Source: an uncultured virus (IMG/VR IMGVR_UViG_3300000956_000008)
Lineage: Duplodnaviria > Heunggongvirae > Uroviricota > Caudoviricetes
Strand: one strand, 5' to 3'
Length of the DNA: 64,000 bases
Virus record (IMG/VR): IMGVR_UViG_3300000956_000008
The notes beneath the pieces are model-generated. The model ran no database searches and had not been told where the DNA came from. It saw only the letters and a program-made list of their open reading frames with translations. Positions 829-63,646 of this stretch are shown piece after piece. Positions within the stretch are counted from its first letter, which is position 1. Each line of letters begins with the position of its first letter. A program made the position numbers and the translations under genes.

Positions 829-1041
829 TTACAACCAGACCGCCATGAGGATGCTGGCAATCGCACTGGCTGCCGCCACAAGGCAGGCAGCACCACCAAC
901 GTAAGGCACAAACGTTGGAACTTTACGTTTGTAATGGCCCTTGGCCCTGTCCTCGTAATTATAGAAGCTATCTACCATCAGCATGACCAGAAACACAACC
1001 AGTGCAGTCGCAGCAATCTTGAAAAGCAACAGTGTTATCAT
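829..1041 (-). CDS. small membrane protein (2 TM)
   Basis: Two hydrophobic segments; start overlaps upstream stop. Confidence 0.7.
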   Translation of the reverse strand: MITLLLFKIAATALVVFLVMLMVDSFYNYEDRAKGHYKRKVPTFVPYVGGAACLVAAASAIASILMAVWL

Positions 1042-1223
1042 TATTTATCTCCTTCAATGTGTTGTTTAAGTGCAGACAGCGTGGAGAACTCTTCACTCCG
1101 AATCTTCCCACCACACCCTCGGGGGCGATAATGCCAAGCATTGCTTTCGTTGTAAATACGGCCAAGCTCTTTCTTGTGCCACTTCACCCGGATGTATTCT
1201 TCTTTCTGTTCGTAGTTGATCAC
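1041..1223 (-). CDS. hypothetical protein
   Basis: Coupled ORF in minus-strand run, GGAG RBS. Confidence 0.7.
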   Translation of the reverse strand: MINYEQKEEYIRVKWHKKELGRIYNESNAWHYRPRGCGGKIRSEEFSTLSALKQHIEGDK

Positions 1224-1408
1224 TTCAACTCTCCTTTGAGTTCCATCAAGGCTGCAATCAGGTTGTCAATTTCATCATCGTACACCATGATTTGCTGCTC
1301 ATCAGATTGGTCTGTTATCACCAGTGTGACCATCGCCCCGCTGTGAATAGTCAAGGTTTCCACTGTGATATTTGTATCGTGCCCTTGGTTGGTTCTGACC
1401 TTAATCAT
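1220..1408 (-). CDS. hypothetical protein
   Basis: 4-nt overlaps with both neighbours. Confidence 0.7.
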   Translation of the reverse strand: MIKVRTNQGHDTNITVETLTIHSGAMVTLVITDQSDEQQIMVYDDEIDNLIAALMELKGELK

Positions 1409-1647
1409 TCTTCGTCCTCATCATCGAAGTCATCTTCCAGTGGGGAGCAGATACCAAGATCAGCGTATGTCATAGCTTCAGGCACCATGAGCACGTCAGG
1501 CCCAGAGTCCATGCCGCCATAGCTCTCAAGGTCTTCATCAATCACACGCTCAGCCAGCTCCTTGTCGAAGGTATACTGGATGGAAGTGTAGCCGTCAGTG
1601 CCTCCAGCGATCAAGTAGAGGGGTTTCAGTTTAACTACGATGCTCAT
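1405..1647 (-). CDS. acidic hypothetical protein
   Basis: Start reassigned to MSIVVK (GGAG RBS; promoter TTGACA-N16-TAAAAT at 1706-1679). Confidence 0.7.
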   Translation of the reverse strand: MSIVVKLKPLYLIAGGTDGYTSIQYTFDKELAERVIDEDLESYGGMDSGPDVLMVPEAMTYADLGICSPLEDDFDDEDEE

Positions 1648-1732
1648 TTGTCTCTCCGTTGTTTGTCTTGATGTGCCCATTTTACAGGAATGGGGAGCCG
1701 TGTCAACTCTTTTCTGCATTTATTATAGGCAA

Positions 1733-1755
1733 AGAAAAGCCCGCCGAAGCGGGCT
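1733..1755 (-). terminator. intrinsic terminator
   Basis: AGCCCGC-TTCG-GCGGGCT followed by TTTCTTT on minus strand. Confidence 0.85.
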
Positions 1756-1757
1756 AA

Positions 1758-1949
1758 TTAGTAGCGAATACCAGTGCGATCAAACAGAGCAGTTGTTAGT
1801 TCTTCGATTCTTGCCTCAAGCCACATTCTACGCTTTGGGATTGTTGTTGTCTTCAAGCATTCACGGAATGCAGTGAGCTTGACTCTAAGAATTCTGACCT
1901 GTTCTTTCGCATAGTAAGCCACCAGTAGTGCGGGTGTTGTGTCAGCCAT
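1758..1949 (-). CDS. hypothetical protein
   Basis: Start MADTT after AAGGAG. Confidence 0.65.
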   Translation of the reverse strand: MADTTPALLVAYYAKEQVRILRVKLTAFRECLKTTTIPKRRMWLEARIEELTTALFDRTGIRY

Positions 1950-2039
1950 GCTAGGCTCCTTATAATGTGAGGCTGTGTATCGAAGATACGCTCCTTGCCT
2001 CAAGGTAATTATAACACCTTTACGCACTCATGTAAAGCC

Positions 2040-2174
2040 CTATTCGTCGGCTGGTTTGGCTTCCCACTGGCCCTTACGACCTTTGCGTTGGTCACGTGAG
2101 TTACGATCAGTCTTGCGTTGTTCACGCTTAGCTTTCTCGTATTCCCAGTTCTTGCCAAACTCTTCTGCACTCAT
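2040..2174 (-). CDS. 44-aa basic peptide (not in ORF track)
   Basis: MSAEEFGKNWEYEKAKREQRKTDRNSRDQRKGRKGQWEAKPADE fills the gap between ORFs. Confidence 0.55.
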   Translation of the reverse strand: MSAEEFGKNWEYEKAKREQRKTDRNSRDQRKGRKGQWEAKPADE

Positions 2175-2179
2175 CTTTC

Positions 2180-2395
2180 TCAAAATAGTTTCCTTTTGTT
2201 AGTCATAATAGTATCCAAATCTTCCCACACTTGCTGGTAGAAACTTGTTGGGATTGTGCCATCAAGGTGCCATGCACCCACCATACCCTTCGTGTATGTG
2301 CAGTGGCTAAGGGCAGACTCATAAGTCTTGGCCTCACTCACCATCGCCACGAAGTCTTCAACGTGCTTCACCTTTTGCTCAGCGTTCAGCATCAT
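2180..2395 (-). CDS. hypothetical protein
   Basis: ORF in co-oriented run. Confidence 0.65.
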   Translation of the reverse strand: MMLNAEQKVKHVEDFVAMVSEAKTYESALSHCTYTKGMVGAWHLDGTIPTSFYQQVWEDLDTIMTNKRKLF

Positions 2396-2615
2396 TTGCT
2401 CTACGCCCTTTGATCAACACTGTCGAGGACTTGTCTACAGCTATTTCTTTCAAGAGCCGGATGGCGAAGATTGGACCAGTGAGAGTGATGATAAACACCA
2501 TGCCCAGATCACCCAGAGTAAAATCATCACCGTCCTTATAACCATCGTATACACAGATAGCCACTGCCACAAACCCTACCAACAGCCAACCTACAACGTA
2601 GTATGCCCACATCAT
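2379..2615 (-). CDS. small membrane protein (2 TM)
   Basis: Two hydrophobic segments, GGAG RBS. Confidence 0.7.
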   Translation of the reverse strand: MMWAYYVVGWLLVGFVAVAICVYDGYKDGDDFTLGDLGMVFIITLTGPIFAIRLLKEIAVDKSSTVLIKGRRANDAER

Positions 2616-3001
2616 TTCTTTGCTCCTTCAATACGTTTAATTGCCTTGTCGAAAATATTACGACCAGCTTTCAAACCCACAACACCCATCGATTCAAACT
2701 GATTCTTCATCTGGTTTGCAGCATGGCAGCAGGCTACAACATTGCCTTTGACATAACCCTTGGTGCCGTCGATACGGTCAATGGTGGCATCCGACAGACG
2801 CAGCTCGCCGTTAGCTTCTTTGCCAGTACTCTTGGTGAGGATGATGCCAGTGTAGTAGCAACGCTCAGCACTCATCAAATTCTTCATCGACTGGAATGAC
2901 AGGTCGAATTCAATACCACGCTTCTTGGCGTTCTCTGCTTTCCAAGTCAGGTGCTTGGCACAGTACAGGTCGAATTCAGTTTTGGTCATGTTGAAACGCA
3001 T
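2612..3001 (-). CDS. HNH-superfamily endonuclease-like protein
   Basis: CYYTG...TIDRIDGTKGYVKGNVVACCHAANQMK, a His-Me-finger-type pattern common in phages. Confidence 0.7.
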   Translation of the reverse strand: MRFNMTKTEFDLYCAKHLTWKAENAKKRGIEFDLSFQSMKNLMSAERCYYTGIILTKSTGKEANGELRLSDATIDRIDGTKGYVKGNVVACCHAANQMKNQFESMGVVGLKAGRNIFDKAIKRIEGAKK

Positions 3002-3036
3002 CGTTGTTGCTCCGTTGTTGGTTGATGTGGTGAATC

Positions 3037-3543
3037 TTACAGTACTTGTTTCAAGTCGTCAAGCGTCAAACCTTTAGATTTCAACAAAGCTTCAATATCA
3101 ACTAAAGTATTGTTGGCCCGCTCGGTTTTCCAAGCGTGAGCTACTTCAAACGCACGATCAACGATCGTCTGAATAGACTTACCTTCACGCAACTCGTACT
3201 CGATTATTAACTTGAAACTATCCAACATTTCAGTTGGTTTTACTACGGTCTTAGGACGTTGAATAGCAACTGCCCGCTGTACATCGAGTTGACCGGCATT
3301 ATAAGCCCTACCCCAAGTCATGAAACGCCCTAGCCACTTCTTTTTGTCGTCCCAAGATAGGGCTAGCTCTGAAGCAATCGCAGCTTGAGTGGACAGGCAG
3401 TTTCTTACCATCTCTATGATGGTCTTTTTATCTTCAATCAGGAAGATTCTCTGTCCATACTTGTACATATCACCAGCGCCGGTTGCTCTTTTTACTGCTT
3501 CACGTACAAACAAGACGATTTCGCTGATAGTTGTGTATTTCAA
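3037..3543 (-). CDS. hypothetical protein
   Basis: 168 aa, TTG start after AGGAG, own promoter TTGACA-N16-TAGAAT. Confidence 0.7.
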   Translation of the reverse strand: MKYTTISEIVLFVREAVKRATGAGDMYKYGQRIFLIEDKKTIIEMVRNCLSTQAAIASELALSWDDKKKWLGRFMTWGRAYNAGQLDVQRAVAIQRPKTVVKPTEMLDSFKLIIEYELREGKSIQTIVDRAFEVAHAWKTERANNTLVDIEALLKSKGLTLDDLKQVL

Positions 3544-3604
3544 AGTTGACTCCTAATTGGTTTGTGTGGGCTATTCTACAGTGTTTATGTTTCGTGTCAA
3601 GCGT

Positions 3605-22660: not shown

Positions 22661-24553
22661 TTAGTCGTCTTGTGCTGCTAACGCTGCCAGATACTCTTCC
22701 TTCACCTTTGGATTCCGATCAAGGTAATCGTCAAGGTCGTACAGAGTGTGTACCTGATTGTCGTAGAAGTATTTGCCAGCTTGTGGCGACGTGTTACCCG
22801 TCCAACGACACTTGGTCATCTTCATGGTTGTCACGTTTCGTTCTACCTCGTTTTCAGCCTCTTTGTTACGTGTGAACAGCAGGTTGCAAGCAGCCGATTT
22901 GAAGATTGCAGACGATCCTTGGAAGTCCTCTTCGAACAGGTCAGCACCAGCAGAGTTAGCCTTGCTGCCACCAGCGCTCTTACGAACGTGGTTGATCAGG
23001 ATAAAGCTTACATCATGGCTCTTCACCATGCCTTTGAGCCACTTCATGAAGACAGCTTGCTCTTCGTTGCTCATACCGTCCATGATATCTTGAAGCGGGT
23101 CAATGATGATCACCTTGCACTCACATGCAACGATAAGCTCCATGATCTTCTCTTTGATATCATCAATCGAGCCATCACGCTCTTCAACCAAGTGCCAACG
23201 GTGCGATCCGTCAGGCAGGAAGAACAGCTCTTGAGCTTTGGCTTCAACGTCTGGACTATTCAACAGCTCCAGCTTCTCAGCATCATCCTCAATCAGGTCA
23301 AGCTTCTTACCGATGTGTCGAGACAGCATCTTGTTGCCGTACTGGGCACAATCCGATTCAAGCGACAGAACACCCGGCTTGTGTGGACTATGGAAAATCC
23401 AGTGGTAGACACATTCATCTACGATTGTTGATTTACCTGTACCAGACGCAGAGCCCAAGTTGGTGATGGTTTTAAGTGGAATACCACCAGCCATCATCTT
23501 CTGCACTTTCTTCATGAATGGCGGCAATGGAATCTTTGGTGTAACAGCCGCTTTCTTCATCAAGTTCATCAGAGAGCCAGAACCAACAATACCCGATGGG
23601 GTATAAGGCACAGCCTTGTAGAACTCTTGAACAAAGTTAAACTCTTTGCCTACAGCAATGTTACGGTCCTTGTCCCACATATAGCTGTTAGGGTCTTTCA
23701 TGGACATTTCCATGATGTACGCCTTGCCTTTCGGCAGAGCTTTACAAACCTTCTCAGCAGCCTCACGGCCAGCCGCATCGTTGTCCATGCAGACGATGAT
23801 ACGTTCGAAGCGGTTGAACCACTCGTATTGCTTTACAATCTGCTTCTCGCAGCCTGTCTCACCGATGGTGGGAGATACAACTGGGATTGGATCATACTGT
23901 GTTCCATTTTTCGAGTTGTTACGGTTGTTGGTGTCAGCCAGCATCTGGAATGCAGACAGTTGGTCAACCTCACCACCAACGATCAGGCAGTATTTACCAC
24001 GTGCCCGAATAAACTTGAACTGTCCAAACAAGTGACACTCTCTACCAGTCTCGCCTAGCGGACCCGGTGTTTTGAAGTCTTTTGGATGCGCACGTCGCTT
24101 ATAACCAGATAGGACAAAGCCATGATCGTTCTCAGCCTCTGCCGTGGTTGGATAGCACTGTACGGCCACTTCACCAGTTTTGGTGTCAATCTCATGACGA
24201 ACGCCAAATGCCGCAGTTGTATCTTTACGAATCCCACGATACCCTTTCGAGTCGGTCGTGGTGATTTCTTTCATTCTTGCGTGAATTTCATCATTGAACT
24301 CAGCACCCACAATATTGTACTCCTGCTCTTCTACCACACCATTTTCTTCCAACCATTCCTCAGACGGAATAGTGAAACCTCCGCAACCACCAAAGCAGTG
24401 AGCACCCTTGTGTCGGCCATCTGTATCTTTGCCGTATACCATCAGGTTATCACCGCTACGGTCGTGGCCCTTCTCGACACACTTTGGGCAAGCTACCTTG
24501 CCATATTGGTATAGATCGATGCCGTATTTCTCTGCAATTTCAAGACTCGTCAA
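22661..24553 (-). CDS. primase-helicase (T7 gp4-like)
   Basis: Zn CPKC/CFGGC, TOPRIM GEVD and MDND, Walker A SGTGKST, IIIDPL, INHVRK. Confidence 0.93.
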   Translation of the reverse strand: MTSLEIAEKYGIDLYQYGKVACPKCVEKGHDRSGDNLMVYGKDTDGRHKGAHCFGGCGGFTIPSEEWLEENGVVEEQEYNIVGAEFNDEIHARMKEITTTDSKGYRGIRKDTTAAFGVRHEIDTKTGEVAVQCYPTTAEAENDHGFVLSGYKRRAHPKDFKTPGPLGETGRECHLFGQFKFIRARGKYCLIVGGEVDQLSAFQMLADTNNRNNSKNGTQYDPIPVVSPTIGETGCEKQIVKQYEWFNRFERIIVCMDNDAAGREAAEKVCKALPKGKAYIMEMSMKDPNSYMWDKDRNIAVGKEFNFVQEFYKAVPYTPSGIVGSGSLMNLMKKAAVTPKIPLPPFMKKVQKMMAGGIPLKTITNLGSASGTGKSTIVDECVYHWIFHSPHKPGVLSLESDCAQYGNKMLSRHIGKKLDLIEDDAEKLELLNSPDVEAKAQELFFLPDGSHRWHLVEERDGSIDDIKEKIMELIVACECKVIIIDPLQDIMDGMSNEEQAVFMKWLKGMVKSHDVSFILINHVRKSAGGSKANSAGADLFEEDFQGSSAIFKSAACNLLFTRNKEAENEVERNVTTMKMTKCRWTGNTSPQAGKYFYDNQVHTLYDLDDYLDRNPKVKEEYLAALAAQDD

Positions 24554-24732
24554 GCAGTGCCCTCCAGAATTGTTATAGTTACTGATAAACTAGAGCCATA
24601 CTCTGACAAGCTTCGTTCAATCCTCGTCTTTGCTACATCAGCAGCAGACCGCCCTGAGAAGGTGATTGTAGAGCTTGAGACTGAGTACGGGAATGTCGTA
24701 GTTCGTGTTACAACCAATAGCGTCACGCTCAT
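24550..24732 (-). CDS. hypothetical protein
   Basis: Coupled ORF. Confidence 0.6.
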   Translation of the reverse strand: MSVTLLVVTRTTTFPYSVSSSTITFSGRSAADVAKTRIERSLSEYGSSLSVTITILEGTA

Positions 24733-24935
24733 ACTACCTCCACTTCCATTGGATCAAAGTGCAGTGCGTCCAGAGCGTCTTCTGGGTCTTGCTCTGGATC
24801 GAGGTCAACACACAATCCGCCATCAGGCCACACCTTGGTGATAACACCAGTCCAGCCAATCAGATTGCCTTCTGCTGCCACGTTGGTTTTGTCGTAAGAG
24901 TCATATACAACTTTGATGCGATCACCAGCTTTCAT
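24729..24935 (-). CDS. hypothetical protein
   Basis: AAGGAG RBS, coupled ORF. Confidence 0.7.
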   Translation of the reverse strand: MKAGDRIKVVYDSYDKTNVAAEGNLIGWTGVITKVWPDGGLCVDLDPEQDPEDALDALHFDPMEVEVV

Positions 24936-25054
24936 TCATGTTCTCCTTTCTTGTGTTTACGTTTACGACGGTATTTTGTACGGTCGCGTTCAACCTTGGG
25001 GATGTTAACACGTCGATTCGGTCCTGCCAAGGGATTTCTTATCTTATTGTCCAA
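24932..25054 (-). CDS. 40-aa basic peptide (not in ORF track)
   Basis: TTG start; ...NPLAGPNRRVNIPKVERDRTKYRRKRKHKKGEHE; ATGA overlap with next gene. Confidence 0.55.
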   Translation of the reverse strand: MDNKIRNPLAGPNRRVNIPKVERDRTKYRRKRKHKKGEHE

Positions 25055-25256
25055 CGTCGTATTCTCTCAGGAATGTATGAAGAGCAGAGTCTACCACAAA
25101 CCTCTGGCTGTCGATAGCATTTTCTATATGAATCAAGAACATAGGACCGTGTATCCCTTGTGCGGACTGGACACGCACAGTGTAGCTACTGTCCCGCTGC
25201 TGTACACGCTTCTCAAGAGCGTCACAGAAATTAAGGATTTGACCTTCGGTAATCAT
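25044..25256 (-). CDS. hypothetical protein
   Basis: AGGAG RBS. Confidence 0.65.
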   Translation of the reverse strand: MITEGQILNFCDALEKRVQQRDSSYTVRVQSAQGIHGPMFLIHIENAIDSQRFVVDSALHTFLREYDVGQ

Positions 25257-25279
25257 AATATCTCCTATCTATAGGCGTG

Positions 25280-25316
25280 AAAAAGCCCCACCATCGGTAG
25301 GCCGAAAGGCAGGGCT
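25280..25316 (-). terminator. intrinsic terminator closing the protein+RNA unit
   Basis: AGCCC...GGGCT stem followed by TTTTT on minus strand. Confidence 0.6.
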
Positions 25317-25329
25317 CAGTCATTGGTTT

Positions 25330-25650
25330 CATGCTAACGACAGCTCGGTGCATTGCCAGCGTCCGTCACACAGATACGTCTCAACGTGTATCCAAGATTT
25401 GGAGAAGCTTTGTAGCGATACTGGTTAAAGCTTTAAAAGGTTGAGGGTTCCCGCCCGAAGCGGAGAGCATCTTAATCTTTTAGCTTTGCAGCTTTCCTAT
25501 TTGAACTTTGATCTTAGTCAATGCTTGGATAGGGCGTAGCAGCCCCATCAATCTATGCTTAGATTTGGTTAGAATACCATTCTTAATAGGCTCCCCGGAT
25601 ATACCCCCGAGGAATGGGTTGCGTGAATTTAGGCAATTCGTCGCAGCATG
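25330..25650 (-). ncRNA. putative structured non-coding RNA with AAAG repeats
   Basis: No ORF; 5' CATGCTGCGAC pairs with 3' GTCGTTAGCATG; second long-range helix ATTGCC/GGCAAT; several local hairpins. Confidence 0.65.
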
Positions 25651-25671
25651 GTAAACTTGTTTACAACTCTG

Positions 25672-26289
25672 TTAGGCTTCGATCAGAGTCTTGGCGTTTG
25701 CCTCAGACAGAGCGAAGTCCACTTCAAACAGGAAGCCATTGATATCTGCTTCCATCTTGCTGATCACAGCTTCCAGACCGCTTGGATCAAGTGGTGCGGT
25801 GATGTTCGAAGCGGTGTAAGGCTTGCTGATGGCCTCCAACTCTTCTTCGGTAGCCTTGCGATCCTTACCGACAGCAGCTTGAATCATGGTGTCGATACGG
25901 CCTTGCATTTGAGTGTTGTTACGTTCGATAACAGAGCGAACCTGACCCAGTTGTTGCTGGAGAACAGCCTGAAGGGCACGCTCTTTATCGATAGAGCCTT
26001 TACGCTCAATGGCCTCAGCCACAGTCAGCTCTTTACCGTTGATGGTGACGGTGGTCACAGCATTCGAACGGATGATTGCAGCCTTAACTGCTTGGCGACG
26101 GGCGATCAGGTCTTGAACCGATTGCAGGTTTGCCTTCAACAGATTGGTGGCTGTCTGAAGGTCTTGACCATTGGTAGTCTTGCCACCAACAGTAACAGTT
26201 GCGAAGACGCTCTGTCGAGTGGCTTTCTCGATGCGATCATTCAGGGATTTTACTTCAGCCAAAGCGCGTGTAATGGAAATCTGTGCCAT
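25672..26289 (-). CDS. coiled-coil protein (resembles DIP1984/DUF6847-type proteins, unverified)
   Basis: ISITRALAEVKSLNDRI, LTVAEAIERK, EVDFALSEANAKTLI; heptad pattern. Confidence 0.85.
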   Translation of the reverse strand: MAQISITRALAEVKSLNDRIEKATRQSVFATVTVGGKTTNGQDLQTATNLLKANLQSVQDLIARRQAVKAAIIRSNAVTTVTINGKELTVAEAIERKGSIDKERALQAVLQQQLGQVRSVIERNNTQMQGRIDTMIQAAVGKDRKATEEELEAISKPYTASNITAPLDPSGLEAVISKMEADINGFLFEVDFALSEANAKTLIEA

Positions 26290-26321
26290 CTTTATATTCT
26301 CCTTTGATATTTGATTTGGTC

Positions 26322-26349
26322 ATTGTAGCAGGTTTTTGTCTGCTGTCAA
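26322..26349 (-). promoter_or_regulatory. promoter TTGACA-N16-TACAAT with extended -10 (TGn)
   Basis: Read directly; -35 overlaps upstream TGA stop. Confidence 0.75.
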
Positions 26350-26675
26350 GCGTTATTTAAGATTGCAAATGGATTATCGTCAATCCAGATAGCAACCTTC
26401 ACTTTCTGTGCAGCCATGTAAACCTGCTTTGCTTGACCAGAAGTGTAATACACCTTGAAACCTTTGTCAACCAGAAATTGTAAATCTTCTGGATATGTCT
26501 GAGGCGTTCGCCACGTACACACAACCACGTGGTATCCGCCCTTCTCCAGAGCCAGCATCACCTGTAGCCATAGAGGTTCGTTATCACTGATCGTTTCGTC
26601 ATAGTCAATAGCTATGACGGGAGCGTCCCGCCCTAAGAAGTCTGTCCGTGCCCAAGGATCAAAACCCGGCATCAT
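26346..26675 (-). CDS. HAD-superfamily phosphatase-like protein
   Basis: IAIDYDETI (DxDxT), CTWR, IWIDDNP. Confidence 0.75.
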   Translation of the reverse strand: MMPGFDPWARTDFLGRDAPVIAIDYDETISDNEPLWLQVMLALEKGGYHVVVCTWRTPQTYPEDLQFLVDKGFKVYYTSGQAKQVYMAAQKVKVAIWIDDNPFAILNNA

Positions 26676-26863
26676 AACACCTGCTTGAAGTAGACCAGAT
26701 TACCGCAGAGTGTGCAAGCTGCTTTGTAGTAGGATTCATGATAATCACTCTCGTAAGTGAGATCACCTTGCTTAGCTTCGAACTCACTTTTACACGTGCC
26801 GCACCGTCCTGTGTACTTTCTCTCAGCAGGCAGCTCGCCTCTCTTTGTCATCACGATAGCCAT
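26672..26863 (-). CDS. small Zn-ribbon protein
   Basis: CGTC...CTLC. Confidence 0.7.
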   Translation of the reverse strand: MAIVMTKRGELPAERKYTGRCGTCKSEFEAKQGDLTYESDYHESYYKAACTLCGNLVYFKQVL

Positions 26864-27057
26864 TATTGAAACCTCAGCATGGACGTTTCCAGTTCACGCA
26901 CAATACCATCAGAACTCACCTGACGCAACACACGCAGGGCGAACTCACTGCCAGTCTCATGTATAGCAGGGTGCATATTATAGCCCAAGTCTTGCAGCAC
27001 AGCGGTACGCTCAGAAATCCGCAGTGCTTTGAATGCTGCCATCAGTTCGTTATTCAT
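26863..27057 (-). CDS. hypothetical protein
   Basis: Start MNNEL, coupled. Confidence 0.6.
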   Translation of the reverse strand: MNNELMAAFKALRISERTAVLQDLGYNMHPAIHETGSEFALRVLRQVSSDGIVRELETSMLRFQ

Positions 27058-27266
27058 TTGTATACCCCTTGTCTGTATTTGAGAACCAAGTGCTGCCTCA
27101 TGCACTCGTATCCAATTGGAATTCCTAAGCTGCTGTGTAGCAACTCACCACGCCCACCCGCTTTGACACAAGCCATCTTCATGTCATCGTAATGACTGGC
27201 CTGCACTACAAAGATGCTACCGAACATTGCCACAGCGAATAGCCCCAAGCCTACAACGAATTTCAT
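27054..27266 (-). CDS. small membrane-anchored protein
   Basis: N-terminal TM, C..AGG...C. Confidence 0.65.
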   Translation of the reverse strand: MKFVVGLGLFAVAMFGSIFVVQASHYDDMKMACVKAGGRGELLHSSLGIPIGYECMRQHLVLKYRQGVYK

Positions 27267-27472
27267 TTCCTGTTCCACCAAAGGGTTTTGCCTGTCAAGG
27301 CTTCATAAGCCTGCCTGTCCGCAAGGCGACATTTCTGTGTGAGATAAATAGGGTTGATACCCTTCTCCATGCAGTATGCCTTAGAATTGCAGGCCATGTC
27401 AAAGAATTCTACAAGATTTCCTTCACAATCTTCAAGAATGTAGCCATGCTCAGTCTTGATTAGCCACCACAT
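27263..27472 (-). CDS. hypothetical protein
   Basis: TAATG coupling. Confidence 0.6.
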   Translation of the reverse strand: MWWLIKTEHGYILEDCEGNLVEFFDMACNSKAYCMEKGINPIYLTQKCRLADRQAYEALTGKTLWWNRK

Positions 27473-28101
27473 TACAAGCCCCAAGCCTGCATGTTGGTGT
27501 AGATTACAGTGTTAGTCATGATCTGGTCAAGCAGAAACTCACGACTTCCCGTTTGGATTGTTAGGTCTTTGGTAATCAGAATGTTGCTTCGCGTCTCTAC
27601 ATCATTTGCCAGCACCATGTCAAGGTTGCTGTTGTGCATTGAGTTGAAGGCTTTAGCCACCTGTTCAACCTTGCTCGCATTGTGTGTGGTCTTGAAGCCA
27701 GCCACAATGATATCAGGACGACGTTGCTTGATGAGCGTCATCATCTTACCTTGCACACCCTTAAGGGTCACAGGGTAATCCTTAGAGCTTGATAGACGTG
27801 TCTCGTATGTGTATAGGTTGTCCACATAGAAATCACAGACAGCCGCATTCATGACGATGGCTTTAACGTCTTCATTTGGTAACAGCACATCAAGTATAAA
27901 GGTTTCAACGTCCTCATTGGTGAGCAGGGTGCTGTTCGAATCAGCCATCTTTGTCAAGATCAACTGGGGCTTAAGCGTGCCATTGTCTGCAAACATTGCG
28001 TGAAGCTTCTTAGCCGTACCACCAAAAGCTGGTGCAGCTAGCGCCAGATGGCAGGAAATAGGGTTGAACGTACCACCACCAATGATTACAACCTTGCTCA
28101 T
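27472..28101 (-). CDS. CoaB-like (phosphopantothenate-cysteine ligase, DFP C-terminal) protein
   Basis: IIGGGT, VMNAAVCDF, IVAGFKT, DMVLANDV match CoaB blocks. Confidence 0.75.
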   Translation of the reverse strand: MSKVVIIGGGTFNPISCHLALAAPAFGGTAKKLHAMFADNGTLKPQLILTKMADSNSTLLTNEDVETFILDVLLPNEDVKAIVMNAAVCDFYVDNLYTYETRLSSSKDYPVTLKGVQGKMMTLIKQRRPDIIVAGFKTTHNASKVEQVAKAFNSMHNSNLDMVLANDVETRSNILITKDLTIQTGSREFLLDQIMTNTVIYTNMQAWGL

Positions 28102-28409
28102 TTCTGCTCCTTTGCCCATTGGACAGCTCGTTTAATGACGTTCCCATGACAGGGATTTGGAGAACAATAACAGGCCAATCGTTTTCCGTCAAGGTCTTTC
28201 AGCATTTCGATTGTGATTATTCCTAATCGTATCTGCTTCCAAAGATAAATTCTGTACCTGATTATTGCATCCGCTACGCTCTCAACAATAATATCTGCCT
28301 TTGTCCCTTTCTTGTGGCTGAACGGGTTGCCCCATACACTGCCCCTTCCTATATAGACAACATCTGCATCTGTTTTGTCGATATTCCTTACGTTAACCAC
28401 TTGGCACAT
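28098..28409 (-). CDS. DUF4326-type protein
   Basis: VYIGRGSVWGNPF...LDGKRLACYCSPNPCHG. Confidence 0.85.
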   Translation of the reverse strand: MCQVVNVRNIDKTDADVVYIGRGSVWGNPFSHKKGTKADIIVESVADAIIRYRIYLWKQIRLGIITIEMLKDLDGKRLACYCSPNPCHGNVIKRAVQWAKEQK

Positions 28410-29436: not shown

Positions 29437-30579
29437 ATGTCTGAACGTGCTCTTGCCCGTGTTGTTACCATTGACGAACTGGTTGCCATTGAAGGCGCTG
29501 ATCGTATCGAGCTGGCTATCGTTGGTGGTTGGCAGGTTGTTGTACAGAAGGGTTTGTACGAGCCAAATAAAACATTGGCCGTATATTTCGAAGTGGATTC
29601 CCTGCTGGATAGTGAGCGCCCATACTTCAACGATACTGCAAACTGGAGTTCTAAACTACTCCATAGTGTGGATGGCCGTACTCATGCACGGGTCAAAACC
29701 ATGAAGCTGCGTAAGCAACTCTCTCAGGGTTATATGATCCCTCTGTCTGAAACTGGTCTAACTGCAAAGGTTGGTGATAACCTTACCAAAGACCTCGGCG
29801 TCATCAAGTACGAAAAAGCCGAAGAAGCCAGCATGAACAACTCCGGTGGCACTGGTGTCAAGTCGGGTACATCGGCTCTGGGCTTCCCTAAGATGATCCC
29901 TAAGACTGACCAAACCCGAGTGCAGAACATCACTCACATGTACAACAAAGCTGTTGAAGAAGGGGAAGAATTTGAAGAGTCGTTCAAGTTGGACGGAAGC
30001 TCTCTTACTGCGTTTGTTCATGACGGCGTGGCTGGTGTCGCTTCTCGTAACGTCGGTTTTCGGGTTGAAGCCGAAACACGCACTTTGGTTGCTACTATCA
30101 AGCGTTTCATTTCTCATGTGCGGACTCGCGGTCTACGTGCTGCAAAGTGGGAGCGTGTAATCCCTAAAGACGACAATCAGTTCACTCAGATTGTTGCTGA
30201 GCAAGGCATCATCGAAGCGATTCGTCGCGATGGCCGTAACATCGCTGTACAAGGTGAGCTGGTTGGTCCTTCGATTCAGAAGAACTTTGAAGGCATGGAC
30301 AAGAACACCTTCTTCTGCTACGATGTGTACTTGATTGATGAGCAGCGTTACATGCTGCCTGCTGAGCGACTTGAGTTCTGCACTGATCAAGGCGTGAAGC
30401 ATGTGCCGATCAACTTCACTGGTAAGCTGCAAGCTCCAGATGTTGCAGGTGCTATCACCCGTGCAGACGGTCCCTCTGGACTGAAAGGTAAGTACCGTGA
30501 AGGCTTCGTGTACAAATCGACCACTCGCGACTTCTCGTTCAAAGTGATCAGCAACGCCTACTTGCTCAAGGAGGAATGA
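29437..30579 (+). CDS. RNA ligase (Rnl2/DRB0094-type with N-terminal OB domain)
   Basis: KLDGSS adenylation motif, QGELVG, FCYD, REGFV, FKVIS. Confidence 0.92.
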   Translation: MSERALARVVTIDELVAIEGADRIELAIVGGWQVVVQKGLYEPNKTLAVYFEVDSLLDSERPYFNDTANWSSKLLHSVDGRTHARVKTMKLRKQLSQGYMIPLSETGLTAKVGDNLTKDLGVIKYEKAEEASMNNSGGTGVKSGTSALGFPKMIPKTDQTRVQNITHMYNKAVEEGEEFEESFKLDGSSLTAFVHDGVAGVASRNVGFRVEAETRTLVATIKRFISHVRTRGLRAAKWERVIPKDDNQFTQIVAEQGIIEAIRRDGRNIAVQGELVGPSIQKNFEGMDKNTFFCYDVYLIDEQRYMLPAERLEFCTDQGVKHVPINFTGKLQAPDVAGAITRADGPSGLKGKYREGFVYKSTTRDFSFKVISNAYLLKEE

Positions 30580-60652: not shown

Positions 60653-60728
60653 TGGTGCATTCTTGAGGTATCGAGCCTCATCCTCTGGGGTTTCAATCCA
60701 GTGCTTCTACCTAGTTAGCTTAGAATGC
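60653..60728 (-). tRNA. tRNA-Phe(GAA)
   Basis: Cloverleaf, encoded CCA. Confidence 0.8.
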
Positions 60729-60732
60729 GAAT

Positions 60733-60808
60733 TGGTGCGGGATTAGGGAGTCGAACCCTAGTTCCTCGGGTGGAAGCCGAGAGTATTAGACCTCTATACG
60801 AATCACGC
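60733..60808 (-). tRNA. tRNA-Gly(TCC)
   Basis: CTCGG-CTTCCAC-CCGAG, TTCGA, CCA. Confidence 0.9.
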
Positions 60809-60813
60809 ATGTT

Positions 60814-60888
60814 TGGAGCCATCTATGGGAGTTGAACCCATCTATTACTGGTTTGCAATCAGCACCCTAGCCGCTCAGGCAAGATGGA
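60814..60888 (-). tRNA. tRNA-Cys(GCA)
   Basis: Cloverleaf, U73, CCA. Confidence 0.85.
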
Positions 60889-60895
60889 CATAATT

Positions 60896-60980
60896 TGGTG
60901 GGCCAAGAGGGTCACGATCCCTCAATCCTTTCGGCGGCAGTTTCTAAGACTGCTGTGTATACCAGTTCCACCACTGGCCC
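60896..60980 (-). tRNA. tRNA-Leu(TAG)
   Basis: Long variable arm, CCA. Confidence 0.9.
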
Positions 60981-60986
60981 ATAATT

Positions 60987-61060
60987 TGGGGTGACGCAGA
61001 GATTCGAACTCTTTCAACCGGGTCACAACCGGAAGTCTCAGCCAGAGAGAACGACGTCAC
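60987..61060 (-). tRNA. tRNA-His(GTG)
   Basis: Cloverleaf, C73, CCA. Confidence 0.8.
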
Positions 61061-61205
61061 AGTCAAGCGTGTTGCTTTGTAATTCTTGCTCAGCCTCTTT
61101 CAAGGTCTGTTTGTCTAGTTGACGTTCTTTGAGCATTACACGGTCACAGCATCTGCATGATAATGTTTCATATCGTTTTGCACGTTGCTTGAGTCTAACT
61201 TTCAT
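61038..61205 (-). CDS. 55-aa protein within tRNA array, running into tRNA-His
   Basis: AGGAG RBS; MKVRLKQRAKRYETLSCRCCDR... Confidence 0.5.
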   Translation of the reverse strand: MKVRLKQRAKRYETLSCRCCDRVMLKERQLDKQTLKEAEQELQSNTLDCDVVLSG

Positions 61206-61221
61206 ATCGTCTCCTATAATT

Positions 61222-61295
61222 TGGTGGACCGTCGGGGAGTCAAACCCCGCCTTCTACGGTGCAAGCGTAGCGAACTATCGAAATTCTTACAGCCC
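61222..61295 (-). tRNA. tRNA-Ala(TGC)
   Basis: G3:U70 pair, CCA. Confidence 0.85.
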
Positions 61296-61376
61296 ATTGT
61301 CGCGTTTTGCTGCCCTTGTCAGGTACGATGTAATCCAAGCAATTAGGGCGAGGCACATACACCTTTTCAACAAAAT

Positions 61377-61450
61377 TGGTCACTCGGGGTGGAGTCGAAC
61401 CACCGCCACTTCGTTCCAAACAAAGTACGCTACCGTAACGCTTCCGAGAG
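61377..61450 (-). tRNA. tRNA-Pro(TGG)
   Basis: Cloverleaf, CCA. Confidence 0.85.
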
Positions 61451-61471
61451 ATAAATCATTTACATCTTAAT

Positions 61472-61556
61472 TGGTGCCGCCTAATGGAATCGAACCACAT
61501 ATCCAGAGGCCAGTGGTTTACAGCCACCTAGTTGTCCCAGCAACTCTTTAGTCGGC
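61472..61556 (-). tRNA. tRNA-Tyr(GTA)
   Basis: Long variable arm, CCA. Confidence 0.8.
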
Positions 61557-61564
61557 ATTTAAAT

Positions 61565-61650
61565 TGGCTGGCGCGGTAGGACTCGAACCTACAAGACCTT
61601 TCGGAAGCTCCGTTAACAGCGGAGTGCAGTACCATTATGCTTACACGCCA
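61565..61650 (-). tRNA. tRNA-Asn(GTT) with atypical long variable arm
   Basis: CTCCG-CTGTTAA-CGGAG then CTTCCGAAAGGTCTT, G73, CCA. Confidence 0.85.
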
Positions 61651-61719
61651 ATTTATTCTGATAGAGACTATATTTATACAGCACACTCTATCTGGCTGTA
61701 CCCGTGGGGAGCACGTGTT

Positions 61720-61796
61720 TGGTTGCGGGTGTAGGATTTGAACCTACGCGATACAGGATATGAGCCTGCTGTTCTACCAGACTGAACTAACCCGCA
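61720..61796 (-). tRNA. tRNA-Met(CAT) (fMet/Met/Ile2 identity unresolved)
   Basis: Cloverleaf, CCA. Confidence 0.85.
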
Positions 61797-61816
61797 TTTG
61801 TTTGGTGTTTCTAATT

Positions 61817-61890
61817 TGGTCGCCAGAGAAGGTAACGCTCCTTCGTTTTAGAGTTATCAGCTCTGCGTTCTACTTTTGAACTATCCGGCA
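61817..61890 (-). tRNA. tRNA-Ile(GAT)
   Basis: Cloverleaf, atypical T-loop, CCA. Confidence 0.8.
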
Positions 61891-61896
61891 TTTGTT

Positions 61897-61973
61897 TGGT
61901 AGAGGACAAGGGATTCGAACCCATATCTCCTTCGTTCGTAGCGAAAGGCTCTGTCCAGTTAAGCTAATCCTCT
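61897..61973 (-). tRNA. tRNA-Arg(ACG)
   Basis: Cloverleaf, CCA. Confidence 0.9.
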
Positions 61974-61979
61974 ATTGTT

Positions 61980-62054
61980 TGGTGCCCCATCACAGAATCG
62001 AACTGCGATATCCTGATTACAAAACAGGCGTAATGACCATTATACGAAAAGGGC
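61980..62054 (-). tRNA. tRNA-Thr(TGT)
   Basis: Cloverleaf, CCA. Confidence 0.88.
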
Positions 62055-62059
62055 GAATT

Positions 62060-62135
62060 TGGCGGCTCATAGGGAATTCGAATCCCTCCTTCCTGATAGA
62101 CAGTCAAGCGTGCTAACCGCTAACACTAATGAGCC
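62060..62135 (-). tRNA. tRNA-Asp(GTC)
   Basis: Cloverleaf, G73, CCA. Confidence 0.9.
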
Positions 62136-62139
62136 AAAT

Positions 62140-62216
62140 TGGTACTCTTGGTGGGACTCGAACCCAACATCAACTGATTGAAAGTCAGCCATCCTATACC
62201 TTTAGACGACAAGAGC
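62140..62216 (-). tRNA. tRNA-Glu(TTC)
   Basis: Cloverleaf, CCA. Confidence 0.9.
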
Positions 62217-62224
62217 ATTAATTC

Positions 62225-62350
62225 TTATTTGCCGCTGACAGGGTGTTTGTCTTTGCGGGCTTTGTTCGGATGACGACCTTTGCTGTCTTTCAAGCGAGTC
62301 TTGTCAACCGGAGCATGTTCTTTTGTTGCATCGTATGGACGTTGTGCCAT
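62225..62350 (-). CDS. 41-aa basic peptide within tRNA array
   Basis: AAGGAG RBS; MAQRPYDATKEHAPVDKTRLKDSKGRHPNKARKDKHPVSGK; TTGACA upstream at 62407-62412. Confidence 0.6.
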   Translation of the reverse strand: MAQRPYDATKEHAPVDKTRLKDSKGRHPNKARKDKHPVSGK

Positions 62351-62441
62351 TTCTTTCTCTCCTTTTATTTAACTTGTTAGAGTATTAGAACATGGGAAAT
62401 CCATATTGTCAATACCTTACTTCAAATTATTTTACTTTATT

Positions 62442-62516
62442 TGGTGCTGGATGTAGGGTTCGAACCTACCTAAAGCGGCTTAGAAGACCGCTGCACATCC
62501 AATATACCAATCCAGC
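62442..62516 (-). tRNA. tRNA-Arg(TCT)
   Basis: Cloverleaf, CCA. Confidence 0.88.
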
Positions 62517-62521
62517 TTATT

Positions 62522-62596
62522 TGGCGGGCCATCGAGGTTACGATCCCCGTCCACATGGCTTTGGAGGCCAGTATGCTGCCATCACAATCAAGACCC
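62522..62596 (-). tRNA. tRNA-Trp(CCA)
   Basis: Cloverleaf with mismatches, G73, CCA. Confidence 0.75.
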
Positions 62597-62687
62597 TTAA
62601 TTCGTGGGAGACACTTATAACACGCTGTCTCCTGAGCGTCACATCACCAGTTGGTTTGGTGATCATACCAAGGCGCGGTATGTTCTT

Positions 62688-63248
62688 TTATTCGTCACCG
62701 TATCCATCAAATGGGTTGCACGTACCAACGAACTGGGCAAAGCCCTTGTTTTTAAACTTCTCTGTGGTCATCTTCCAGCCGAGCCGCACACGCAAATCGC
62801 GTGTAGCACTCCAAGGCTTGACACAGTAGTATTCGAATCCAATCAGCTTGTTGCCTTCATACAGCTTGGCAAACATGCCGCCGGGAATCTTAGACTTGTC
62901 AGAGATATCAGGATTACCTGTGATGGTCATTGTAGCTGTATCAGACCACTTGATGGCAGAGCGCTTGGCAAGGCCGTACAGAGGGTTTCTGAGCATCCAC
63001 ATGACACGGTTCACGTATCCTTTGAAGCCTGTTGTAACACCGAGGAACAAACAACGTTTGGCTACGAATCCTTGATCACCCTGTGGAGGGTTATCGTATG
63101 TACCCCAAAGCCATCCCCAAGTATATTCAGTCTTACCGTATTCCTGTGCCCGCGTGAACAGAGGAACGATCAATGCTGCGGGAAGTGCAGTGAAGATTGT
63201 CATCAAGATATCAACAACGAGTAGCATTGTGAATCGTAGGTAAATCAT
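62688..63248 (-). CDS. membrane-anchored hypothetical protein
   Basis: Start MIYLRF after GGAGG; TM then W.T.DN...GD, W..RNP.YG, RLGWK. Confidence 0.8.
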   Translation of the reverse strand: MIYLRFTMLLVVDILMTIFTALPAALIVPLFTRAQEYGKTEYTWGWLWGTYDNPPQGDQGFVAKRCLFLGVTTGFKGYVNRVMWMLRNPLYGLAKRSAIKWSDTATMTITGNPDISDKSKIPGGMFAKLYEGNKLIGFEYYCVKPWSATRDLRVRLGWKMTTEKFKNKGFAQFVGTCNPFDGYGDE

Positions 63249-63265
63249 TGTGCCTCCAGTTTGTT

Positions 63266-63342
63266 TGGAAGAGGGAGTGGGGGTCGAACCCACAATTGCT
63301 GGATTCAAAGTCCAGTGCGTCTACCAGTTCCGCCATCCCTCA
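63266..63342 (-). tRNA. tRNA-Gln(TTG)
   Basis: Cloverleaf, CCA. Confidence 0.88.
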
Positions 63343-63490
63343 ATTAAATTAGTACCGAGAGCATTCTAAGGATGGCCATCCGTCGTCAACTCTCTAGTCA
63401 CGTTTCATCCGCTTTGTGAACCACACCCTTTCAGGTGTCCGCCGAGGCTTGGGAGGGAATCGAACCCTAACGCGATTACTTTGTGATGTT

Positions 63491-63564
63491 TGGTGCTTCG
63501 TGAGAGAATTGAACTCCCGTCTGTTGCGTGTAAAGCAACGGCCCTACCATTAGACGAACGAAGC
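63491..63564 (-). tRNA. tRNA-Val(TAC)
   Basis: Cloverleaf, CCA. Confidence 0.9.
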
Positions 63565-63569
63565 TTGTT

Positions 63570-63646
63570 TGGTGGGCCTTCCCAGACTCGAACTGGGAAC
63601 ATCTTCATTTTGAGTGAAGCATGACTGCCAATTGCATCAAAGGCCC
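63570..63646 (-). tRNA. tRNA-Leu(CAA) with short variable loop
   Basis: CTTCA-CTCAAAA-TGAAG, 5-nt variable loop, A73, CCA. Confidence 0.85.

Follow-up and report, generated by a model that had tools for sequence, protein, structure and literature searches.

The stretch of DNA analysed here, referred to below as the window, comprises 64,000 nucleotides (nt) from an uncultured virus (Duplodnaviria; Heunggongvirae; Uroviricota; Caudoviricetes) held as IMG/VR record IMGVR_UViG_3300000956_000008. A first-pass annotation, made from the letters alone, had proposed that positions 25280 to 26349 form one self-contained unit, in which a gene for a coiled-coil protein is followed by an end-paired structured RNA of about 320 nt, and that the two products make up a new ribonucleoprotein (RNP). 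Our analysis indicates that this RNA is genuine and strongly covarying, that gene and RNA recur together as a cassette in many phages, and that the RNA is probably circular. By nucleotide similarity, the window is a Pseudomonas syringae-type myophage resembling Otagovirus and Flaumdravirus: the 1.2-kb region of the cassette is matched by 52 phage records at 73-84% DNA identity, and 51 of these are Pseudomonas phages of the Otagovirus/Flaumdravirus type, including phiPsa374, KIL1-4, M5.1 and VCM. In the window, the cassette is surrounded by genes for DNA polymerase and primase-helicase, and its own parts are arranged as follows.

26322..26349, minus strand: sigma-70-type promoter, TTGACA-16-TACAAT with a TG-extended -10 element (11 of 12 consensus matches)
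25672..26289, minus strand: gene for a protein of 205 amino acids (from the list of open reading frames; phrog_1491)
25330..25650, minus strand: core structured RNA of 321 nt, with the two strands of the closing helix P1 at its ends (304-bit match to our covariance model R1; covariation)
25325..25656, minus strand: putative mature RNA of about 332 nt, that is, the core with about 6 nt added 5' and 5 nt added 3' (ends predicted for this phage)
25280..25316, minus strand: intrinsic terminator, a G+C-rich hairpin and U-tract (fold and sequence scan)

This layout agrees closely with the one first proposed. The strong minus-strand promoter at 26349-26322 is borne out by its 11 of 12 consensus positions, and the KIL3 record annotates a promoter at the equivalent place. 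The structured RNA begins 21 nt 3' of the stop codon, within a 415-nt stretch poor in open reading frames (25671..25257); the roughly 400 nt said to be free of them hold, on the sense strand and at a length of at least 40 codons, a single frame of 40 codons (25353..25231), which overlaps the RNA 3' end and the terminator. The terminator itself, a hairpin with a U-tract at about 25316-25280, was found where predicted, and relatives carry equivalent terminators after the RNA.

On the minus strand, the region folds with a minimum free energy of -122.9 kcal/mol (z -3.25; none of 100 shuffles was as good), and the plus-strand fold is less distinct (z -2.53). In all 17 related phage loci examined, the homologous gene is followed by an unannotated gap of about 380-440 nt. 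A MAFFT alignment of 16 of the RNAs has near-invariant 5' and 3' ends and middle hairpins that differ by insertions and deletions; in UAVern, XD2 and Bitten, the most distant members (protein 55-60% identical), both strands of the closing helices P1 and P2 co-vary, and RNAalifold predicted 45 pairs for this alignment, 21 of them with compensatory double changes. When 43 homologues were aligned to R1, standard pairs made up 92.3% of 1874 pair cells, against 36-42% when the partners were slid by 1-3 columns, although the alignment was fitted to R1, a bias that the slid controls share and of which the MAFFT result is independent. Double changes occur in 38 of the 45 pairs, and none of 500 shuffles reached any of the observed covariation measures. 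The RNA downstream of the homologous genes is thus both conserved and covarying. The two closing pairings noticed at first, CATGCTGCGAC (25650-25640) with GTCGTTAGCATG (25341-25330) and ATTGCC (25637-25632) with GGCAAT (25357-25352), are both present in the minimum-free-energy fold and covary strongly, and the hairpin CCTCGG/CCGGGG is also supported by covariation (double changes in 8 of 8 pairs). The hairpins GATGGGGC/GCCCTATC and CCGC-TTCGG-GCGG do exist, but as lineage-specific inserts that are replaced or missing in relatives. Two further hairpins did not survive the comparison: CCATTC/GAATGG is unconserved and competes with a covarying hairpin, and GATAC-ACGT/ACGT-ATC is missing from the consensus fold.

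The pairs themselves also tell which nucleic acid is folded. The innermost pair of P1 is G.U in 42 of 42 sequences, and U.G pairs are frequent elsewhere too; because an invariant G.U would be C.A on the other strand, the folding strand is the transcribed minus strand. The position of the cassette between polymerase/primase-helicase and early genes, its short repeats and its A-rich core would suit an element that acts as DNA, for instance an origin of replication or a site of recombination, but we consider this very improbable, because the invariant G.U pairs function on one strand only, the compensatory changes keep RNA-type helices, RNA contigs exist (see below) and elsewhere the cassette lies in tRNA operons rather than among replication genes. 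A DNA-level cruciform is likewise unlikely. On this comparative evidence, 25650..25330 encodes a real structured RNA. Coding of a small protein in the same region was rejected, as the relatives' insertions and deletions, which lie in hairpins, are not multiples of three. An internal promoter annotated in the gap of KIL3 was also discarded: its TTGAC reads ATGAC in UAVern, XD2 and Bitten, and we take it to be conserved RNA sequence instead.

The elements of the RNA, all on the minus strand and given here from the closing helix inwards, are the following.

25639..25650, minus strand: P1 5' strand (CAUGCUGCGACG), pairing with 25342-25330 (helix 1)
25330..25342, minus strand: P1 3' strand (UGUCGUUAGCAUG, one bulged U), starting inside the conserved RGCUG motif
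25632..25637, minus strand: P2 5' strand AUUGCC, pairing with 25357-25352 (helix 2)
25352..25357, minus strand: P2 3' strand GGCAAU (helix 2)
25343..25351, minus strand: 2-bp mini-hairpin GC..GC after the P2 3' strand (helix 9)
25620..25627, minus strand: P3 5' strand (UUCACGCA), pairing with 25372-25362 (alignment pairs 25-32/347-357)
25362..25372, minus strand: P3 3' strand UGUGU..GGA with a 3-nt bulge (covariation)
25591..25614, minus strand: conserved hairpin UUCCUCGG / CCGGGGAG, then conserved AGCC-A (helix 6)
25471..25513, minus strand: heptad-repeat block 1, with six units that are each about 7 nt long and end in AAAG, AAAU or UAAG (largely single-stranded in the consensus fold)
25447..25467, minus strand: lineage-specific insert hairpin CCGC-UUCG-GGCGG (in the window and PE09; missing or different in others)
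25396..25443, minus strand: heptad-repeat block 2, ending in a conserved AAAUC motif (AAUC kept in at least 90% of sequences)
25391..25403, minus strand: small hairpin UCCAA-AUC-UUGGA (helix 8, 81% paired)

The coaxial long-range helices P1, P2 and P3 and the 2-bp mini-hairpin form a junction, which holds the most conserved nucleotides of the RNA (GA, which follows P1, and GC.C..RGCUG, which precedes the P1 3' strand). From 5' to 3', the junction is followed by the conserved hairpin with AGCC-A, variable insert hairpins and the two heptad blocks. P1 is paired in 99.2% of cells, with double changes in 10 of its 12 pairs, and P2 in 98.4%, with double changes in 6 of 6; the conserved hairpin is 97.1% paired and has double changes in 8 of 8 pairs, and P3 (helices 3-5) has them in all 8 pairs, although helix 3 is only 72% paired. 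In distant loci, the GC of GCUG is always directly followed by the start of the P1 3' strand. About 12 single-stranded YAAAG repeats (NNYAAAG), in two blocks of about six heptads each, occupy the centre of the RNA, so that the unpaired AAAG-repeat core seen at first is not only real but periodic, with a spacing of 7 nt. AAG-to-AAG distances in the 43 RNAs peak at 7 nt (n = 62, against 4.2 in shuffles), 8 nt (n = 38), 14 nt (n = 44) and 15 nt (n = 33), counts that are inflated by the relatedness of these RNAs. The same heptad periodicity is visible by eye in the RNAs of a T5-like phage and of loci L050, L087 and L088.

This RNA belongs to none of the catalogued families that were searched, in agreement with the first impression that it resembles no known tRNA, transfer-messenger RNA (tmRNA), riboswitch or intron. 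At the gathering threshold, Rfam 15 gave no match at the RNA in the whole window, its matches being 16 tRNAs at 60.6-63.6 kb; at E values up to 10, the interval 25200-25720 yielded two noise matches (13.1 and 11.6 bits) and none to RNase P RNA, and at E up to 1 no match fell on the RNA in ten homologous loci. Neither the window nor these ten loci matched a group I or group II intron, and the RNA lies between a stop codon and a terminator or tRNA and interrupts no gene, unlike introns. The models of GOLLD (RF01998) and ROOL (RF03087) had no match in the window or the ten loci, and YrlA (RF02553) had none on the RNA in the ten loci, its sole weak match lying over the tRNA genes of locus L100. 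ARAGORN found no tRNA and no tmRNA in 24000-27500, where the Rfam tmRNA models were silent as well. In Pyxpy02 (L001), a 74-codon gene upstream of the cassette (1570-1794) is labelled 'smpB: SsrA-binding protein'; genuine SmpB is much longer, and the label is probably a mis-annotation that lends no support to a tmRNA link. Phage K lnc001 and gp233 were tried as homologues and rejected (hhalign probability 0.3; R1 scores of at most 6.4 bits). In the published literature we found no description of the RNA, of T5.085 (a T5 protein to which one phage record likens the cassette protein, see below) or of a ligase-made circular phage non-coding RNA (ncRNA). Other abundant long ncRNAs of phages are described and compared with GOLLD and ROOL in portions of PMC9241854 and PMC7567579, and the supplements searched of PMC10690425, a catalogue of 10,006 candidate viral RNAs, gave no match, although that catalogue may still list part of the RNA.

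The association of the RNA with the protein gene extends far beyond the phage of the window. Searches with tblastn found relatives of the 205-residue protein in 745 phage records, which by the first word of their names comprise Salmonella (285), Escherichia (140), Pseudomonas (58), Vibrio (55), Bacillus (33), Klebsiella (32), Erwinia (26), Lactococcus (22) and others; the Salmonella and Escherichia records listed are mostly T5-like in appearance. R1 detected a full-length RNA directly 3' of the gene and on the same strand in 38 of 80 IMG/VR loci, namely all 30 with a protein identity of at least 48% and 8 at 33-39%. For the 53 most distant loci, a helix-plus-motif script was used, which looks within 110 nt 3' of the gene for a segment pairing with a helix that starts after the GC of RGCUG; it found a P1 helix of at least 13 bp in 41 of the 53, against 10 of 265 shuffled controls, and locus L087 was added after the search window had been widened. 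With R1 and the helix criterion combined, the RNA is present in 71 of the 80 loci. In these loci and in the T5-like phage, the protein is 33-57% identical. The T5-like phage DaisyDussoix has an unannotated gap of 442 nt with a 20-bp P1, a fold z of -4.74 and a full-length R1 match (28 bits, E 1.2e-5 with filters off), and PVP-SE1 has a partial R1 match only (21 bits). The claim that protein gene and RNA form one unit therefore holds well outside the window phage, a T5-like phage included.

The cassette is also often accompanied by tRNA genes. Same-strand tRNA genes lie within 1.5 kb of it in 33 of the 60 loci scanned, and in several loci a tRNA starts within about 15 nt of the RNA end. Genome comparison thus portrays the gene-plus-RNA cassette as old and widespread, and often placed inside tRNA arrays; this link, the spread to a T5-like and other tRNA-rich phages and the probable circular topology had all been missed in the first-pass annotation. 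In one uncultured phage (L050), the RNA enclosed by P1 contains a complete tRNA-Thr gene (2238-2314), placed among the variable hairpins that precede the heptads. In XD2, P1 is separated from the protein stop codon by a promoter with 11 of 12 consensus matches, and the RNA is directly followed by a terminator, so that it forms a separate transcription unit, which argues against a purely cis-acting 3' untranslated region. The XD2 record leaves the protein gene unannotated (L016, 1242-1856 and 1860-2219; 55% identity by tblastn). The position of the RNA 21 nt past the stop codon, mostly between gene and terminator and without a promoter of its own, would otherwise fit an untranslated region that stabilizes or regulates the mRNA of the 205-residue protein and has no role in trans. 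We rate this as improbable: besides the arrangement in XD2, many phages have tRNA genes and not a terminator after the RNA, the RNA-library contigs described below contain the RNA alone, and an architecture of 300 nt in which over 40 pairs covary and repeats recur periodically exceeds by far what a stabilizer needs.

The protein matches the phrog_1491 profile over nearly its full length (E 1.5e-72; residues 1-204 aligned with profile positions 2-208 of 211). The label of that family, 'tail fiber protein', looks inherited and is doubtful; the neighbours of the gene are early, replication and tRNA genes. The PVP-SE1 record notes for its own copy a similarity to T5.085. No significant Pfam, NCBIfam or PADLOC match was found for the protein, and PADLOC was also silent on its neighbours. 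From a 61-sequence alignment, AlphaFold2 predicted with high confidence (predicted local distance difference test score, pLDDT, 95; predicted template modelling score 0.74) three long helices with two beta-hairpin tips and two shorter helices; this model was used in place of the poor one obtained from the single sequence (pLDDT 46). The description as a coiled-coil protein was therefore roughly right as regards the bundle of long helices, and had left out the beta-hairpin tips. Foldseek found no match in the PDB at E up to 0.001, BFVD returned only uncharacterized phage proteins and the ESM Atlas only unnamed viral clusters. The best structural match, PDB 3kdq, an uncharacterized protein of Corynebacterium diphtheriae (VIA-align Z 9.9; root-mean-square deviation 7.3 Å over 150 residues; Foldseek E 0.015; profile E 0.37), is weak for a helical protein, its VIA-align level being within chance for such proteins, and as it has no assigned function it explains nothing. 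When two copies were modelled together, the homodimer scored 0.67 in three runs, against 0.00 for the best control, with 100% contact agreement and a partner pLDDT of at least 89; among proteins of solved structure, 20 of 30 that form pairs of one chain attained this mark, as did 1 of 23 single-chain proteins. The prediction supports a symmetric homodimer. Seven basic positions are conserved (K14, R19, K22, R65, K69, R96 and K97).

These features also bear on the suggestion of an antitoxin-like RNA. An anti-defence decoy, or an RNA resembling a type III antitoxin that soaks up a host ribonuclease or defence sensor, could be imagined from the accessory look of this early-region cassette, from the repeated short A-rich motifs, which might serve as cleavage or binding sites, and from the resistance to exonucleases that a ring would confer. 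The suggestion gained no support: PADLOC is silent on the protein and its neighbours, the protein is predicted to be a helical bundle and not a nuclease fold, and the repeats are 7-nt units within a single fold, unlike the long tandem units of ToxI. The broad host range of the carriers further points to a universal target and not to one defence system, and we regard such a decoy as improbable.

Transcripts of the RNA were sought in four RNA-library runs, which were compared with positions 25150-26400 using Logan contigs of relatives with a likeness of at least 85%; X16 (soil), X17 (peat) and X20 (phyllosphere) are metatranscriptomes from three studies, and the RNA status of the fourth, X15, is a guess. 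The matching contigs of X16, X17 and X20 consist of the RNA alone, within 25325-25650 and without flanking sequence: 25344-25637 and 25346-25639 in X17, 25328-25495 and 25569-25650 in X16, and 25325-25411, 25475-25524 and 25585-25650 in X20. They are bounded by the closing helix, in keeping with the discrete RNA that had been predicted. The protein gene has no RNA-contig cover in X17 and X20, which is not evidence of its absence. In X15, a contig of 1774 nt spans gene and RNA in linear order. In the same run, the 3' end of the protein gene (25688-25725) is covered by a 41-nt contig with a depth of 5000, which produces a depth spike of 960-3576 and is probably unrelated short or low-complexity sequence.

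Two of these runs contain joints that lead from one end of the RNA back to the other. The back-joint in X16 runs from 25650 to 25328 with 7 extra letters (in RNA sense, GCAUGAA-CCCUUCU-CAUGC), and that in X20 from 25650 to 25325 with 6 extra letters (GCAUGAAACC-CUUUCU-CAUGC). At both joints, a conserved 3' flank, (A/G)AACC, is fused to a conserved 5' flank, (C/U)UUUCU, both of which are present in the DNA of relatives. The X16 contig is 381 nt long with a depth of 40.9, and its first 26 aligned RNA bases recur 351 nt later; with an assembly k of 31, which we take to be the value used, 351 + 30 nt corresponds to a circular unitig. The nucleotides just outside P1 (25651-25656 and 25325-25329, and their counterparts in relatives) covary, U/A against C/G, and the flanks are conserved as G(C/U)UUUCU and (G/A)AAACC, which suggests, from conservation at least, a defined processing site. 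In our reading, the RNA would be excised about 5-6 nt outside P1 and its ends ligated, leaving P1 capped by a loop of about 11 nt. A search for an endless reading frame on such a ring found none, the longest stop-free runs being 34-97 codons. The 52 related phage genomes carry a single copy of the RNA each, except phiPsa267, which has an extra inverted copy. In that genome (L013, about 1830-2300), an inverted duplicate of the RNA, the terminator and the last 26 protein codons is inserted after the first 85 nt or so of the RNA; this may reflect either a genuine rearrangement or an error of assembly.

A candidate for the circularizing enzyme is encoded close by.

29437..30579, plus strand: phage RNA ligase of the DraRnl/DRB0094 type, ATP-dependent and carrying an OB domain at its N-terminus; encoded on the opposite strand at a distance of 3.1 kb from the cassette

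This ligase scores 160.8 bits against TIGR02306 (cut-off 151.15), 69.7 bits against PF09414 and 69.2 bits against the PHA02142 OB fold, and the relatives M5.1 and KIL3 share the DraRnl-type gene. Among the other phages compared, M5.1 has ligases matching PF09414 and PF09511, KIL3 one matching PF09414, PVP-SE1 both families, and Bcp1 an RtcB. The DraRnl-type enzyme is a plausible circularizing enzyme, with a link to the cassette that is neither universal nor specific.

Taken together, we favour, with a probability of roughly 0.5, a conserved two-part phage module in which a protein and a circular heptad RNA form an RNP. The first part would be a highly expressed gene whose product is a dimeric, all-helical protein of unassigned family, and the second a structured ncRNA of 320-350 nt immediately downstream on the same strand; that gene and RNA belong together is evident from how deeply the pair is conserved. 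The RNA would usually be derived from the transcript of the gene, and from its own promoter in XD2. It would be cut out a few nt outside P1, accumulate as a discrete stable species and, its ends being held together by P1, be ligated into a covalently closed ring by a phage or host RNA ligase. The ring would then show about 12 single-stranded heptads (NNYAAAG), framed rigidly by the covarying helices. Their periodic, unpaired arrangement suggests a platform for multivalent binding, whose likeliest occupant would be an oligomer of the co-encoded protein, giving a nuclease-resistant RNP, and a ring suggests a need for exonuclease resistance. The usual presence of the cassette in tRNA operons suggests a role near tRNA or translation, and the particle may well act on tRNA or translation-related host processes during infection. 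The parts of this proposal are not equally secure. That the RNA is circular in living cells is fairly probable; binding of the protein to the RNA is put forward tentatively, at somewhat less than even odds; a role in tRNA or translation is possible and more doubtful. We also hold as doubtful the complete version, namely an RNP of tRNA-rich lytic phages in which a ligase-closed, non-intronic, DNA-encoded circular RNA with about a dozen heptads carries a protein oligomer and acts on host tRNA or translation.

Several observations weigh against this proposal, and some of them concern the ring. The junctions come from two contigs, both assembled, which belong to relatives (85-99% alike) and are not raw reads of the window phage. 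Contigs cannot reveal RNA ends, and the appearance of a ring could also result from tandemly duplicated DNA in those relatives or from ligation while the libraries were prepared. In addition, the T5-like phage has no recognizable RNA ligase, the only weak match being the NAD DNA ligase A subunit, so that any ring there would need a host enzyme; this also rules out an RNA ligase as a universal partner of the cassette. All of these points would be accommodated by a stable, processed, linear RNA whose apparent joints arose from tandem DNA copies, library ligation or template switching. Such a linear RNA is possible but, in our view, unlikely, because two studies with different library types place the joint at the same position, the inserted letters fit both natural flanks, the X16 contig closes on itself without branches at substantial depth, and no tandem copy occurs in the 52 phage genomes or in IMG/VR. 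The junction pattern had no match in viral_contigs and none in metagenome_contigs, the latter search being of low power, as the linear 3' motif was present in only 2 contigs there.

Other observations weigh against the partnership and the proposed role. Nine of the 80 IMG/VR loci have no RNA by either criterion, with weaker helices or an open reading frame directly after the gene, and Bacillus phage Bcp1 has a 478-nt gap with no convincing match to the RNA by R1 or the helix script. The protein family is near-neutral (median isoelectric point 6.06, net charge -1), which is atypical of an extensive RNA binder and is a mild argument against protein-RNA binding. In the window, moreover, the tRNA array lies about 35 kb from the cassette (16 genes by Rfam, 60656-63646, minus strand). 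A serious rival, though one that we still think unlikely, is therefore that the RNA acts without its neighbour, as an RNA-only assembly or as a sponge or decoy for a host factor that reads spaced AAG or AAAG, the link between gene and RNA then reflecting nothing more than a shared transcription unit in tRNA operons. The heptad spacing does recall RNAs bound by host oligomeric proteins, the near-neutral protein and the separate promoter and terminator of the XD2 RNA would both be expected, and GOLLD and ROOL, which occur near tRNA genes, form RNA-only complexes, as stated in the abstract of 10.1101/2024.12.08.627333. Against this rival, the adjacency of gene and RNA survives protein divergence to 33% identity and a complete turnover of the P1 sequence, a constancy not easily accounted for unless the two are functionally tied, and no host factor of such specificity was identified in our analysis. 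The two-part module of protein and circular RNA thus continues to be the reading that we favour.

Several known RNAs provide instructive comparisons with this module. GOLLD and ROOL are about 580-800 nt long. Like the cassette RNA, they are large, intricate phage ncRNAs, so far without a function and often beside tRNA genes, and they are abundantly transcribed, as portions of PMC7567579 and PMC9241854 describe. The cassette RNA differs in being smaller (about 320-350 nt), tied to a specific protein gene, furnished with heptads and probably circular. The species 1 and 2 RNAs of T4 (rnaC and rnaD) are stable RNAs that are co-transcribed with phage tRNA genes and so far have no function; they are much smaller than the cassette RNA and have tRNA-like ends, and to our knowledge neither a partner gene nor a circular form is on record for them. 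The circular ncRNAs of archaea (rRNA intermediates and C/D-box small RNAs) are made by the splicing endonuclease and RtcB, and resemble the route proposed for the cassette RNA: a helix joins the ends, an endonuclease cleaves beyond it and a ligase then seals the RNA into a circle. They require, however, a bulge-helix-bulge motif and EndA, whereas the cassette RNA comes from a bacterial virus and has no evident bulge-helix-bulge. Circular metatranscriptome contigs of a few hundred nt are similar in contig type and length; unlike circular RNA replicons, the cassette RNA has its gene in the DNA of tailed phages, and it contains no ribozyme and no Oblin-like open reading frame.

As for RNAs with a dedicated protein, the Y RNA-Ro (Rsr) RNPs of bacteria and phages, found beside RtcB, combine a long stem that pairs the RNA ends with a protein of their own, and have links to tRNA-like modules and RNA ligase operons. 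The cassette has no Ro/TROVE protein (no Pfam match above the cut-off), and its protein is instead a predicted helical dimer. The targets of HutP and TRAP are spaced NAG triplets in mRNA leaders (4 nt apart in HutP sites), which are bound by ring oligomers of the alpha/beta type. Short purine motifs with a fixed spacing in single-stranded RNA are common to these targets and the cassette RNA, where the spacing is 7 nt; the cassette repeats are instead part of a closed ncRNA, whose candidate binding partner, a predicted helical dimer, is unrelated to those ring proteins. The type III toxin-antitoxin systems (ToxIN-like) have antitoxin RNAs with tandem units of 34-36 nt in ToxI, and differ from the cassette both in these units, as opposed to 7-nt repeats, and in the ToxN endoribonuclease, as opposed to a predicted helical bundle.

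A few further observations concern neighbouring genes. The gene directly upstream of the cassette (26346-26675) has a weakly supported resemblance to a small HAD-type phosphatase. Between the cassette and the RNA ligase, on the minus strand of the window (27472-28409), lie a DFP-like (PF04127) gene of 215 codons and a DUF4326 gene of 103 codons. In KIL3 (L003), the primase/helicase coding sequence, from 3793 onward, is annotated as two joined pieces, indicating interruption by an intron or intein.

In summary, our analysis bears on a protein that 745 phages carry, among them T5-type, PVP-SE1-type and Pseudomonas biocontrol phages, and that has been mislabelled 'tail fiber protein'. The 300-480 nt that follow its gene were hitherto unannotated, and a structured RNA at this place fills a blind spot in the genomes of model phages. 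The ring, if real, would represent a new route to natural circular RNA in bacteria, one that uses an endonuclease and a ligase and is free of introns, and it would be the first ligase-made class of circular ncRNA in bacteria or their viruses. The cassette adds a protein-linked member to the large phage RNAs that accompany tRNA genes, and it may partly explain why tRNA-rich phages carry RNA ligases.

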